Source: Dyella tabacisoli
Lineage (GTDB): Bacteria; Pseudomonadota; Gammaproteobacteria; Xanthomonadales; Rhodanobacteraceae
Assembly: GCF_003350925.1 (NCBI RefSeq)
Contig: NZ_KZ857174.1
Location: forward strand, 499,484-563,483
Length of the DNA: 64,000 nucleotides
Reading direction: 5' to 3'
Under the pieces are notes generated by a model that did no database searches, was not told the DNA's origin, and saw nothing but the letters and a program-made list of their open reading frames with translations. The position numbers were made by a program, and so were the translations under genes. This document shows, piece after piece, positions 33,980 to 39,702 of the stretch (within the stretch, counting starts at the first letter, position 1; each line of letters begins with the position of its first letter).

Positions 33980-35164
33980 ATGCCGCATCCGCGGGGGCTC
34001 ATGGTGCTGTCGGTGTTGCTGCTCGCGCTGGTCGCCTGCGGCCGAACGCCCGTGCCTCTGACGCATGATGCCTACGTCTGGCAGCGCCAATGGAGTCCAT
34101 CGCTGACTTTTGCGCTCAATCAGTCCGCCGATCTGATTCGTGACTGGCGTGTACTGGCGGCGCAGACGGATGCGAAGGGGCAATTGCGCAACGTCGCCAT
34201 AGACCGTGCTGCACTTGCCGCTACGGGCCGTCCGGTGATCCTGGTCGTGCGTATCGATGGGCAGTTGGTGCAATGGGACGAGGACGCCCTGATTGCCCAG
34301 ATCGTCGCGCTTCGTAACGATGGGGCAGGTGTTGCCGGCATCGAGATCGATCACGATTGCGGTACGGCACGGCTGCCGGCATATGCGCATTTTCTCGGTC
34401 GCTTGAAGCTGTCGCTGGGTACGTTACCGCTTTCTATTACCGCGCTGCCGGCGTGGTTGTCGTCAAGGGATCTCGATACTGTGCTTGGTGCGGTGGACGA
34501 AGCTGTGCTGCAAGTTCATGCCGTGCAATCGCCTCGGGCTGGCTTGTTCGATGTAGCGCTGGCGCAGCAGTGGGTCGGGACTTTCGCCAAACGCAGCAAG
34601 AAACCGTTTCGTGTGGCCTTGCCCAACTATGGCTCAAAGGTGAGTTGGGATGGCGATGGCCGGATGATTGCCATTGAAAGCGAGGCGCCGGCTTTGTCGG
34701 CGGGTGCCGAGTCGCGAGAGCTGGCAGCCGCACCGCGCGATGTCGCGCGCTTGCTGAAGATGCTGCACGACGATCCGCCAGCCCATTTTGCCGGTGTGGT
34801 GTGGTTTCGCTTGCCGACAGCCGATGACGTTCGTAGTTGGAGCCTGCCTACCTGGCGGGCGGTTATCCAGGGGCGGCCGTTGACTGCCCAGGTGGCGGCT
34901 ATCGCCCAACCCGGTGCGGTGGCGGGTGCCCTGGATATTCTGTTGCGCAATGATGGCGACGTCGATGCGTCGCTACCCATCGCGCTGAGCTTGCCACACG
35001 ATTGCGCCATCGCCGATGGCATCAATGGCTATCAGCTCGATCGTCGCAGCGATGGCCTTTATCTCAAACGCAGTCAGGATGGCTGGCTGCGCTCGCATCG
35101 CCAGCGCCAAGTAGGCTGGATGCGTTGCACTTCCTCAAAAGTGGATATTCATGTTGCGAATTAA
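33980..35164 (+). CDS. hypothetical lipoprotein (possibly DUF3142-like), function unknown
   Basis: Lipobox LLLALVAC-G. 394 aa, no recognisable catalytic motif. The 3' end overlaps the next gene by 14 nt. Confidence 0.5.
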   Translation: MPHPRGLMVLSVLLLALVACGRTPVPLTHDAYVWQRQWSPSLTFALNQSADLIRDWRVLAAQTDAKGQLRNVAIDRAALAATGRPVILVVRIDGQLVQWDEDALIAQIVALRNDGAGVAGIEIDHDCGTARLPAYAHFLGRLKLSLGTLPLSITALPAWLSSRDLDTVLGAVDEAVLQVHAVQSPRAGLFDVALAQQWVGTFAKRSKKPFRVALPNYGSKVSWDGDGRMIAIESEAPALSAGAESRELAAAPRDVARLLKMLHDDPPAHFAGVVWFRLPTADDVRSWSLPTWRAVIQGRPLTAQVAAIAQPGAVAGALDILLRNDGDVDASLPIALSLPHDCAIADGINGYQLDRRSDGLYLKRSQDGWLRSHRQRQVGWMRCTSSKVDIHVAN

Positions 35165-37218: not shown

Positions 37219-39702
37219 ATGTTAAAACGTAGCTTGATCGTTCTCACTGTCGTGGCCGGGTTGGCCGGAGCCGTGGTCTGGGCCTGCGGGCCGGATTTCC
37301 CGAATCAACTGCTGGATCATCGGGAGGGCGCACTCAAGTCGACACCGCAGAACAGCTTTGCGTTCGAGGCGAAACACTTGCTGGTAGCCACCGATGCGCT
37401 GCAGCCGCAAGAGACGAATATTTATTCAACCGATAAAGACGATAAGCAGCGCCAGGCAAAAATGCTGGGGCTCACGCCGGAGCAGGCGGAGCGTGTTGCC
37501 ACGCTGCGCGATGCAGATACCGGTAGCGCTGCCTATGAGGATGGCAAGGATCTGCCGGCCGATTTGCGTTGGTACACCGCCGGCGCCGTGGACTACAGCA
37601 ACGGGGCGATGGCTTGTGAAGGCAGCGACGAATCGGAGATGAGCGACGCCGAGCGCCAGGCATGCGCTCAGCCGGATGCCGAAGCCTGGGCGCATGCCGC
37701 AGCCAGTTTCGAGCATGTACTTGCATTGCCGCCAGAGCAGGCGAAGCTGCGTTCGGTATGGGCTGCTTATATGTTGGGCAGTATTCATGCGAAACAAGCG
37801 GAAGCCCAGGCGGGCGACGCTGCCGTATTCAATCGCGAGCGCGATGCCGCGGTGAAGTTTTTCGAGCTGGCGCGCGCCCGCGCGGTTGCCGGTGCGTCGG
37901 ATACGCAAGGTCTGGCGGTGGCCAGCTTCGGTGAGCAGGCGCGGCTCTATCTTTACAACGGAGCGCGGCAGTGCAGTTGGGCTGATCTGTACAACGGCAA
38001 TGATTGCGGCGATGGCATTGCGGCGGCCGATATCAAGCATGCCATTGCTCTCTACGCCGCGCAGGCCGGGCATGGCTCGGATAGCGCCGTCTTGTCGCTT
38101 GCCGCGATCGCCGGCGATGTGTTGAAGAGCAGCGAGCGTACGGCGGCCATCGTCGATGGGCCGGTTTCGCAGCGATTACTGGTGACCTACGCACTGGCAC
38201 GCATGGATACGACGGATGCCGATATCGCTGCCGATATCACGGCGGATACCGGCGCTGCCGCCAAACAGACGGCCAAGGCCAATCCAGCCTTACTGGCACT
38301 GGTCGATGCGATCGAGCGGCAGGGTCTGGATCGCGTCAGCGGTGCCGATCGACTTGCCGCGTTGAGCTATCAAATCGGCCGATATGACCTGGCCGCGAAA
38401 CTCGTCGATAAAGCACCCGGCCCGCTAGCGAGCTGGGTGCGTGCCAAGTTGGCCCTGCGCAAGGGCGACCTTGCGGCAGCGGGCGCCGCTTATGCGGAGG
38501 CGGCCAAGGCGTTTCCGAAAGCCGATGATCCCAAGGCGTCGCTGGAAGTGGACAGCATGCACTTGCTGATTGCAGAGAGTGGGGTGTTGGCGCTCGCCCG
38601 CGGCGAGTATGTCGAAGCGATGGGGCATCTCTACGATGCTGCGAATGCGGTGGGCGGTAGCGGCAATACCTATGACGAGAGCTCCGGCAGCGGCATCGGT
38701 TATGGCAACGATGCCGCTTATGTCGCCGAGCGTGTACTGACGGTCGATGAGCTGAAGAGCTTTATCGATGCCCGTGCGCCCGCATCGCCCGCGCCTAGTC
38801 CGGCCTCGGCGAAAAGCACGCAAGAGGCATGGGCTTACGGGCAGACCCCGCTGGCCGATGAGCTGCGCTGGCTGCTTGCCCGCCGTTTAATGCGTGCGGC
38901 TCGTTACGATGAAGCGCAGAACTATTTTCCGGCCAGAGGGGATCGCCGTTTCGCTACTTCGGATCAGCCGGTTGTCGATCTACGCGCCAAGGCGCGCGAG
39001 TATGCAAAAGCGGTACACGACAGCGATCACGCCTGGACCGATATCGGCCGGGCGGAGGCGCGCTATGCCGCCGCTGTGATTGCGCGTGAACAAGGCATGG
39101 AGCTACTGGGTTACCAGCAGGGTCCCGATTATCAAGACAACGGCGGCGGCTACCCTGGCGGCTCAGGGCATACCGCCAATGATCTGAAAGGCAGTTATGT
39201 GACCGAAGGCGAGCGCCAACGTTTCGCTGGCAGCGGCGCGATGCCCGAGTTGCGTTTCCACTACCGTTATCTGGCAGTCAATCGCGCTTCCAGCGCCGCC
39301 GATTTATTGCCGCCACGCTCACAGGCATTTGCTGCGGTGCTGTGTAAGGCCACTGGGTGGATGTTGGACGGTCCTGGTGGCGGCTTTTATGACGGTCCCG
39401 GTGCCACTGCAGACGGCAGTCCTGCGACGGAGCCCGTCGATGAGCGCAGCAAACGTGTCAAGGAGCTTTACACACGCTATGTAAAGCAAGGTGCGTATGT
39501 ACCGTGGGCGGATGACTTTGGGCGCAGTTGCGAAGAGCCTAATTTCGACGCGGCGAGAAAGCTCAAGCGCGCGCAGCAGATGGTCGCGATCAAGCACTAT
39601 GTGCGCAGAAACAAGCTCTATGCCCTGGGTGGCTTTGTCGTTGTGCTGGGTGCTATCGCGGCTTGGTTTATTCGTCGACGCAGACAGCGTGCCGTGCAGT
39701 AA
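37219..39702 (+). CDS. hypothetical protein, larger paralog of 35151-37166 (same N-terminal ACG..FPN motif, C-terminal TM and RRRR tail)
   Basis: About 827 aa from the ATG at 37219 (AAGGA Shine-Dalgarno upstream). It shares RYDLAAK…PLASWVRAKLAL(Q/R)KGDLAAAGAAYA…AKAFP and LPPRSQAFAA.LC.A.GWM blocks, and has an extra N-terminal region duplicated internally. Confidence 0.5.
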   Translation: MLKRSLIVLTVVAGLAGAVVWACGPDFPNQLLDHREGALKSTPQNSFAFEAKHLLVATDALQPQETNIYSTDKDDKQRQAKMLGLTPEQAERVATLRDADTGSAAYEDGKDLPADLRWYTAGAVDYSNGAMACEGSDESEMSDAERQACAQPDAEAWAHAAASFEHVLALPPEQAKLRSVWAAYMLGSIHAKQAEAQAGDAAVFNRERDAAVKFFELARARAVAGASDTQGLAVASFGEQARLYLYNGARQCSWADLYNGNDCGDGIAAADIKHAIALYAAQAGHGSDSAVLSLAAIAGDVLKSSERTAAIVDGPVSQRLLVTYALARMDTTDADIAADITADTGAAAKQTAKANPALLALVDAIERQGLDRVSGADRLAALSYQIGRYDLAAKLVDKAPGPLASWVRAKLALRKGDLAAAGAAYAEAAKAFPKADDPKASLEVDSMHLLIAESGVLALARGEYVEAMGHLYDAANAVGGSGNTYDESSGSGIGYGNDAAYVAERVLTVDELKSFIDARAPASPAPSPASAKSTQEAWAYGQTPLADELRWLLARRLMRAARYDEAQNYFPARGDRRFATSDQPVVDLRAKAREYAKAVHDSDHAWTDIGRAEARYAAAVIAREQGMELLGYQQGPDYQDNGGGYPGGSGHTANDLKGSYVTEGERQRFAGSGAMPELRFHYRYLAVNRASSAADLLPPRSQAFAAVLCKATGWMLDGPGGGFYDGPGATADGSPATEPVDERSKRVKELYTRYVKQGAYVPWADDFGRSCEEPNFDAARKLKRAQQMVAIKHYVRRNKLYALGGFVVVLGAIAAWFIRRRRQRAVQ

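Follow-up and report, generated by a model that had tools for sequence, protein, structure and literature searches.

A 64,000-nucleotide stretch of the Dyella tabacisoli genome (contig NZ_KZ857174.1; hereafter the window) contains three adjacent genes that encode a lipoprotein with a DUF3142 domain and two large paralogous proteins, designated paralog A and paralog B. The DUF3142 gene and one large-protein gene form a conserved two-gene unit, usually with overlapping reading frames, and the second large-protein gene is a duplication in D. tabacisoli and Dyella silvatica. In structural models, the lipoprotein adopts a barrel fold typical of glycoside hydrolase family 18 (GH18), whereas paralog B adopts an all-α solenoid that resembles tetratricopeptide repeat (TPR) proteins. 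We tentatively propose that the pair comprises a periplasmic glycan hydrolase and a membrane-anchored scaffold or regulator, the second component of which is duplicated in D. tabacisoli. We consider this interpretation plausible, somewhat short of probable. The genes are arranged as follows:

33980..35164, + strand: DUF3142 lipoprotein gene (394 amino acids)
35151..37166, + strand: gene for paralog A, the shorter large protein (671 amino acids)
37167..37218, + strand: spacer of 52 nt separating the paralog genes; contains an AAGGAA Shine-Dalgarno sequence 8 nt before the ATG at 37219
37219..39702, + strand: gene for paralog B, a typical full-length family member (827 amino acids)

Judged by sequence, all three open reading frames (ORFs) are genuine genes; homologs of each number in the hundreds to thousands. 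The mechanical ORF of paralog B (WP_114844621.1) begins earlier, at a TTG at 37177; the ATG at 37219 gives the N-terminus common to all homologs. Paralog A is represented by two database entries. RDD82556.1 (GenBank) begins at an internal methionine and is 660 amino acids long, 11 residues shorter (window 35151-35183), whereas WP_162791387.1 contains 671 amino acids. The start at 35151 appears to be the better choice: it is backed by WP_162791387.1 and by a basic n-region (M.RIKQ...R.AM) that is kept in the nearest homologs (P0002-P0004). With this start, the gene overlaps the DUF3142 gene by 14 nt. No convincing terminator was found between the paralog A and B genes in a pattern scan, which detected 12 terminator-like sites in 11 kb compared with 10.6 expected. 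As in an initial annotation of the window, co-transcription of the three genes is considered likely.

In a survey that took a single genome from each species, at least 559 genomes encoded a relative of the large proteins. We compared 82 loci, which comprise the best 80 genome matches and two look-ups (Paraburkholderia and Luteibacter). Carriers among the best 80 include gammaproteobacteria (Dyella, Luteibacter, Rhodanobacter, Frateuria, and Pseudomonas), betaproteobacteria (Herbaspirillum, Paraburkholderia, Achromobacter, and Duganella), and alphaproteobacteria (Gluconacetobacter, Stellaceae, Dongiaceae, and Rhizomicrobium). In 80 of the 82 loci, the large-protein gene is immediately preceded by a DUF3142 ORF in the same orientation; the two exceptions are the halves of a three-gene operon in D. 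silvatica that is split at contig ends. Frames overlap in 45 of 73 loci (30 with 14 nt, 11 with 4 nt, and 4 with 1 nt). Gaps of 10-91 nt separate the genes in the other loci where the start is credible; in nine loci, the automated start is implausibly early. In Paraburkholderia and Luteibacter, the DUF3142 gene overlaps the start of a single large-protein gene. Xanthomonas sacchari, the sole match of a plasmid search, harbors the same pair, and its large protein is named "hypothetical protein" by NCBI. When all neighboring ORFs of the 82 loci were clustered, no other neighbor was conserved across clades. Thus, the lipoprotein gene does co-occur with the large-protein gene, as the initial annotation had asked, and the unit consists of two genes rather than the three-gene operon described there.

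The 14-nt overlap, at which the large protein begins M-W/L/Y-N-R-K..., recurs across alpha-, beta-, and gammaproteobacteria. Conservation of a junction to this depth is unusual.

The DUF3142 lipoprotein and its relation to chitinases

The lipoprotein matches Pfam DUF3142 (PF11340) with 235.7 bits (E=6.8e-70; gathering score, 30 bits); the match covers positions 1-201 of the 202-position profile and residues 82-280 of the protein. The view that the operon lacks recognizable domains therefore fails for the lipoprotein. The signal peptide ends in the lipobox L-V-A-C20, which fits the signal peptidase (SPase) II pattern ([LVI][ASTVI][GAS]C or its PROSITE-type form). The lipobox Cys is missing in 3 of 31 homologs. 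An AlphaFold2 model built with these 31 homologs (predicted local distance difference test score, 89.2; predicted template modeling score, 0.84) consists of a signal helix, a (β/α)8 GH18-type barrel (residues ~28-296), and a C-terminal β-sandwich (residues ~305-393). The best 34 fold matches of this model are all GH18 chitinases or chitinase-like proteins, with scores of up to 22.4. Matches also include the spore-cortex lytic enzyme SleL (21.0), Cwp19 (18.9), the glycoside-hydrolase domain of PgaB (17.6), and 8y6t, the TfeC chitinase of Yersinia pseudotuberculosis (16.8; 21% identity). A profile of the lipoprotein family identified 8y6t, which was deposited under the name "DUF3142 domain-containing protein", as the sole relative by sequence in the PDB (E=3e-11).

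The candidate active site of the lipoprotein lies on a predicted strand:

34343..34360, + strand: E122-I-D124-H-D126-C motif in predicted strand 118-125; candidate catalytic acids at the place of the GH18 DxDxE motif

E122, D124, and D126 are invariant in the 31 homologs, as are H180, Y217, E235, W275, and R277. D124 and D126 align with I-D-F-D of TfeC, so that I-D-x-D is common to both proteins. Judged from sequence position only, E122, D124, and D126 would be equivalent to the GH18 motif. The lipoprotein thus looks like a non-canonical, apparently active member of the TfeC branch.

[quoted passage not shown] The available portion of its description (PMC13577199) presents TfeC as a novel chitinase on a separate branch of GH18. 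The two proteins differ in several respects. TfeC is a secreted protein of 262 amino acids without a lipobox, whereas the Dyella protein carries a Sec/SPase II signal and an extra β-sandwich; two residues are Glu and His in the Dyella protein and Gln and Tyr in TfeC; and the Dyella lipoprotein, unlike TfeC, has an obligate large-protein neighbor. No T6SS genes were found among the neighbors in the window (26.8-46 kb) or in related loci. The LVAC signal peptide and the lack of nearby T6SS genes argue against a TfeC-like T6SS effector. The classical lipobox and the additional β-sandwich instead predict a resident, lipid-anchored periplasmic enzyme rather than an injected one.

The relation to TfeC raises another explanation for the pair, namely that the lipoprotein is a surface-exposed or released chitinase used to attack chitin or fungal walls or to exploit chitooligosaccharides, with the large protein serving in its export or maturation. 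The closest characterized relative is an antifungal chitinase, the best fold matches are chitinases, and the carriers belong mainly to soil, rhizosphere, and plant-associated genera. One member of the large-protein family weakly matches TPR_Slam (surface lipoprotein assembly modulator), and a TonB-dependent receptor is encoded upstream of the pair in X. sacchari. However, genes for chitin utilization, GlcNAc (N-acetylglucosamine) catabolism, chitoporins, or secretion are not conserved nearby, and the large protein has no β-barrel or translocon-like part. The low identity to TfeC and the extra β-sandwich further separate the lipoprotein from its characterized relative. We consider this explanation unlikely.

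The large-protein family

An exhaustive profile search placed the large proteins in a family of 2218 clusters at 50% identity (E<=1e-3), 1191 of which remain at E<=1e-30. Neither Pfam nor NCBIfam has a model for this family, and nothing scored above threshold. The best Pfam TPR scores were 15.4 bits (TPR_8) and 15.2 bits (TPR_16) for paralog A and 15.1 bits (TPR_16) for paralog B, compared with cut-offs of 25.7 and 32.7 bits. Neither paralog B nor the family profile retrieved any PDB sequence at E<=10. The model of paralog B is a TPR-like solenoid of helix-turn-helix repeats in which β-structure is confined to two 2-residue bridges, and its structural matches are generic TPR-like proteins only. 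These results bear out the initial conclusion that the large proteins fall outside any characterized family.

The proposed paralogy of A and B is also borne out. The two proteins are 45% identical over 584 amino acids by BLASTP (E=1e-128) and 48% identical over 659 aligned codons. Their main features, each of which is on the + strand, are as follows:

35229..35252, +: A-C28-G-G-F-F-P-N (paralog A, residues 27-34), end of the N-terminal hydrophobic segment; passes the PROSITE-type lipobox
37282..37305, +: A-C23-G-P-D-F-P-N (paralog B, residues 22-29); Cys in 92% of 139 representatives, preceded by A/V-x-A
37387..37968, +: helical subdomain (paralog B, residues 57-250), in nearly all family members and deleted from paralog A
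35937..36074, +: RYDLAAK...KAFP block in paralog A (residues 263-308)
38380..38517, +: RYDLAAK...WVRAKLAL.KGD...KAFP block in paralog B (residues 388-433), the most conserved block of the family; a TPR-like helix pair
39307..39546, +: LPPRSQAFAAVLC709...FGRSC771EEPNF region of paralog B; C709 (96%) and C771 (97%) are the two near-universal Cys of the family
37080..37148, +: C-terminal hydrophobic helix of paralog A (residues 644-662), RRRR (663-666), and five more residues
39616..39684, +: C-terminal hydrophobic helix of paralog B (residues 800-818), RRRR (819-822), and five more residues

The motifs that were originally read from the sequence (ACGGFFPN, ACGPDFPN, the RYDLAAK block, LPPRSQAFAA.LC.A.GWM, FGR.CE.P.F, and C.W...C) are all in place. 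Conservation was measured across 139 diverse family members with paralog B numbering. Residues conserved in >90% of members include Y279, Q282, K410, E453, R505, E511, R555, R556, R559, E665, R668, H681, Y682, R683, S701, and Q702. Conserved Cys pairs had been proposed, and the evidence supports them in part: C709 and C771, like C23, are conserved in 92-97% of members and C709-C771 form a probable disulfide, whereas the C252...C263 pair (C.W...C) occurs in ~23% of representatives and is specific to a subfamily.

Within the 46-residue block, 38 of 46 residues (83%) are identical between A and B, and W406, K410, and G416 are conserved in 94-98% of the family. Sub-threshold matches to TPR_16 and HEAT_Nup120 around residues 384-475 of paralog B include the block. 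Identity at third codon positions within the block is 0.48, equal to the background elsewhere in the alignment, which rules out gene conversion. Because synonymous divergence is at background, the block is kept by purifying selection.

The difference in size between the paralogs had been attributed to an internal duplication in the N-terminal region of the larger protein. Self-comparison of paralog B by BLAST yielded the diagonal only, even at E<=100. Instead, paralog A has lost a subdomain: residues 57-250 of paralog B form a well-folded helical subdomain of ~190 residues in the model, and a 61-residue Ala/Asp-rich linker takes its place in paralog A. The closest relatives of paralog A (P0002 and P0003; 819-820 amino acids, 70-71% identical) retain the subdomain, indicating that its loss from paralog A is recent.

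In both large proteins, exactly two segments are hydrophobic: one at the N-terminus and the single C-terminal helix followed by RRRR that had been noted at the outset. A C-terminal hydrophobic segment followed by at least three Arg/Lys residues is present in 114 of 138 representatives (83%). We agree with the initial view that the body of the protein is probably periplasmic, flanked on one side by an N-terminal segment of signal or lipobox-like type and on the other by a C-terminal helix and its short basic tail. The predicted cytoplasmic tail has a median length of 10 residues in the family and contains no domain, which leaves no room for a signaling domain. C-terminal signals for sortases (LPXTG), exosortases (PEP-CTERM), and rhombosortases (GlyGly-CTERM) likewise consist of a hydrophobic helix and a cluster of Arg/Lys residues. 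We rejected such a signal: residues 787-819 of paralog B contain no invariant or 90%-conserved column, and the helix is not preceded by a conserved signature motif. The neighbors in the window and in related loci include no gene for a sortase or exosortase. The simplest reading of the C-terminal helix is a plain stop-transfer anchor.

The N-terminal motif is widely conserved (A22, 90%; C23, 92%; G24, 83%; P25, 74%; F27, 81%). The Cys is preceded by A/V-x-A, with W, H, R, Q, or E often at position -2. Paralog A (V-A-M-A-C28) passes the lipobox pattern, paralog B (V-V-W-A-C23) fails it, and 58 of 107 representatives pass. A or V at position -3 and A at position -1 fit the A-x-A pattern of SPase I equally. 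The Cys would be either acylated after cleavage by SPase II or the first residue after cleavage by SPase I.

These features bear on the envelope-spanning tether or sensor suggested in the initial annotation. In such a protein, the N-terminal Cys would be lipidated and delivered to the outer membrane and the C-terminal helix kept in the inner membrane, so that the protein would bridge the periplasm and signal or preserve envelope geometry. A near-invariant Cys that closes the signal segment is a hallmark of lipoproteins, the residue at +2 is Gly rather than Asp, and the C-terminal helix with its basic tail is conserved; the lipobox is recognizable in paralog A and just over half of representatives. 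However, W, H, R, or E occupies position -2 in nearly half of representatives, in paralog B, and in 113 of 118 close homologs, for which the SPase I pattern A-x-A is the better fit. Extraction by the Lol system of a protein that also carries a transmembrane helix is mechanistically awkward. Sensing is further disfavored by the five residues that follow RRRR in A and B and by the short tails of the family. A HisKA_3 kinase and a LuxR-type regulator do precede the pair in Rhodanobacteraceae; yet this two-component system goes with an ABC-2 transporter as a common unit of its own, and no sigma factor or regulator is conserved beside the pair outside that one family. The absence of a cytoplasmic domain and of a conserved adjacent regulator also argues against a transmembrane anti-sigma factor. 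We regard the tether or sensor as unlikely; the evidence does not bear out a sensor, and a tether would require lipidation of the N-terminal Cys and its sorting to the outer membrane.

A different role for the N-terminus is conceivable. Conservation is strong over the 30 residues that follow the Cys (R35, 98%; F47, 92%), and enzyme-inhibitor pairs typically show strict one-to-one adjacency with overlapping frames. The large protein could be an immunity-like inhibitor that holds a potentially autolytic glycosidase inactive in the periplasm of the producer, perhaps by inserting C-G-P-x-F-P...R...F.FE into the active-site cleft. In Pseudomonas silvicola, an ORF that overlaps the DUF3142 start (locus L049, 5093-5740) matches Imm11 with 22.1 bits, a score that merely equals the Pfam gathering cut-off; the ORF is present in this lineage only. 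Self-protection is nonetheless improbable: 700-900 residues and a membrane anchor are unusually large for an inhibitor, conservation extends along the entire solenoid rather than the N-terminus alone, and there is no context of toxin delivery.

Proposed function of the pair

The GH18-like, TfeC-like fold of the lipoprotein argues for a hydrolase with a partner rather than a sensor. In the model that we tentatively favor, the DUF3142 lipoprotein would most likely be an active glycosidase directed at a GlcNAc-containing glycan. The large protein would be exported by its N-terminal signal segment, which ends in the near-invariant A-C-G-P-x-F-P, and its C-terminal transmembrane helix and Arg-rich stop-transfer tail would fix the solenoid at the periplasmic face of the inner membrane. 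There, the anchored solenoid may serve as a scaffold or regulator of the hydrolase, which it would bind, position, or gate. The lack of a cytoplasmic domain makes such a role most likely for the large protein and signal transduction unlikely. As to substrate, we weakly prefer peptidoglycan strands, the envelope glycan of the cell itself, to chitin or poly-N-acetylglucosamine (PNAG), because the enzyme is expected to stay in the envelope and is not accompanied by chitin-utilization genes. Given the activity of TfeC, chitin or chitooligosaccharides are a serious alternative as substrate.

Several observations weigh against this model. The barrel fold of the lipoprotein is common to GH18 chitinases and chitinase-like peptidoglycan hydrolases (3fnd, 4q6t, SleL 4s3j, and Cwp19 5oq2), but Pfam Glyco_hydro_18 yields no match at E<=1 in the lipoprotein. 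The canonical DxxDxDxE motif is not present as such; the lipoprotein has E-x-D-x-D instead of D-x-D-x-E, and an Asp occupies, by sequence position, the place of the catalytic Glu. To our knowledge, the sole characterized DUF3142 protein is an antifungal effector secreted by a T6SS and not a resident periplasmic enzyme. The many invariant charged residues of the large protein raise the possibility that this protein is itself an enzyme or binds a ligand, although its model has no enzyme-like fold match. Finally, the extra domains of unusually long family members are TPR or DUF3142 fusions only, and two apparent metagenomic fusions of DUF3142 to the large protein (P0384, 1176 amino acids; P0366, 981 amino acids) keep an internal stretch that resembles a signal peptide. 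In P0384, this stretch is complete and follows an Arg-rich read-through segment. Both fusions may be frameshift artifacts and lend weak support to the pairing; P0384 at least looks like an artifact of a frameshift or of gene calling.

It is tempting to speculate that the solenoid extends across or gauges the periplasm and controls a non-canonical GH18-like glycosidase that acts on the cell's own wall, which would define a new class of regulators of cell-wall hydrolases. In this scenario, the processed Cys-Gly-Pro-x-Phe-Pro end would be fixed to a second site provided by lipid, the outer membrane, or the enzyme. We consider this more elaborate version of the model quite unlikely.

Helical-repeat envelope proteins operate together with periplasmic glycan or cell-wall enzymes in PelB-PelA, PgaA-PgaB, BcsC-BcsZ, NlpI-MepS, and LpoA-PBP1A. 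The functional logic proposed here would be the same, by analogy only. The large proteins of Dyella have no sequence or global fold relationship to PelB, PgaA, BcsC, NlpI, or LpoA, none of which combines a C-terminal helix anchor with an N-terminal Cys motif; unlike the PelB, PgaA, and BcsC systems, the Dyella pair includes no β-barrel porin and no synthase genes. A direct role as accessory pair of a synthase-dependent exopolysaccharide pathway, like PelA-PelB, PgaB-PgaA, or BcsZ-BcsC, might be considered inasmuch as a TPR-like protein beside a glycoside-hydrolase fold is a hallmark of such systems, and some homologs are named "cellulose synthase operon protein C" by JGI. The 82 neighborhoods, however, contain no glycosyltransferase or synthase, cyclic di-GMP receptor, or outer-membrane porin, and the C-terminus of the large protein is a single helix rather than a β-barrel. 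This makes such a role very unlikely.

Both families are already present in databases, the lipoproteins as "DUF3142 domain-containing protein" and the large proteins as "hypothetical" or "tetratricopeptide repeat protein". In the literature searched, "DUF3142" appeared in one unrelated comparative-genomics table only. The sources searched contained no description of the obligate pairing of DUF3142 with the large protein, of the partner's double-ended architecture with its A-C-G-P-x-F-P start, or of a resident lipoprotein with a TfeC-type fold; for the large-protein family, we found no solved structure and no published function. The combination of an envelope hydrolase with a helical-repeat partner is a variation on a known theme. 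DUF3142 has only recently gained a first characterized member, the chitinase TfeC, and the pairing provides a testable handle on both families through a resident, lipid-anchored GH18-like enzyme and its dedicated membrane-anchored partner. Should the enzyme act on peptidoglycan, the pair would be a new hydrolase-regulator system of the cell wall, shared by many bacteria from soil or associated with plants and by opportunists, for example Achromobacter. Should it act on chitin, the pair would represent a new route in bacterial-fungal interaction. If neither holds, the pair is an ordinary conserved hypothetical operon.

Neighboring genes

Rhodanobacteraceae relatives carry the pair directly between the HisKA_3 kinase/LuxR two-component system (upstream) and queA (downstream). 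In the window, genes for an ABC ATPase, an ABC-2 permease, the HisKA_3 kinase, and the LuxR-type regulator occupy 25213-28767 and are syntenic with Luteibacter (locus L002, 2056-6720). A functional link between the pair and the two-component system was rejected: the arrangement is confined to Rhodanobacteraceae, stands beside the ABC-2 transporter, and is read as local synteny. The ABC-2/two-component unit is probably independent and not a regulator of the DUF3142 pair.

In Luteibacter rhizovicinus (L002), the LuxR regulator and DUF3142 genes are just 55 nt apart. In the window, a stretch of ~5 kb (28818-33847) lies between them and encodes a 477-residue secreted protein, a 115-residue ORF, an SPFH/Band-7 protein, and RtcB; no RtcA or RtcR gene adjoins rtcB. 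RtcB and SPFH had been put forward as possible conserved neighbors, a linkage that we dismissed because both genes are absent from all related loci and belong to this intervening stretch. The 477-residue protein (28818-30251) has a signal peptide and no Pfam match. It contains an IVGNEPDN motif like the clan GH-A acid/base "NEP", and judging from this motif it may be another glycoside hydrolase.

Just 3' of the rtcB stop codon is a hairpin with a 9-bp all-G/C stem (GGGGGCGGG...CCCGCCCCU; 33882-33910) and no U-tract, which lies upstream of a TACAAT -10-like hexamer that precedes the DUF3142 gene. The rtcB-DUF3142 intergenic region folds somewhat better than shuffled sequences (z=-2.2). The hairpin could act in termination or in RNA stability.

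Downstream of the paralog B gene, an ORF for a VapB-like antitoxin (AbrB/SpoVT-type, MKITSKGQVTIPQ...) is followed by a VapC gene with a PIN domain (Pfam PIN, E=6.6e-9; 39829-40531 for both). This VapBC module separates the paralog B gene from queA, which directly adjoins the large-protein gene in related genomes. Just upstream of the module is a perfect inverted repeat of 13 bp (ACGATTCTTACTT...AAGTAAGAATCGT; palindrome 39794-39824), probably the VapBC operator. PADLOC, which was used to search for anti-phage defense, yielded nothing meaningful.

One of the related loci is a 3.7-kb contig (L015, CBAAAD010000365.1) that is binned as "uncultured Methylobacterium sp." Its large protein is 61% identical to that of Dyella, compared with 40-42% for the other alphaproteobacterial matches, and the contig is probably a mis-binned one from Rhodanobacteraceae.

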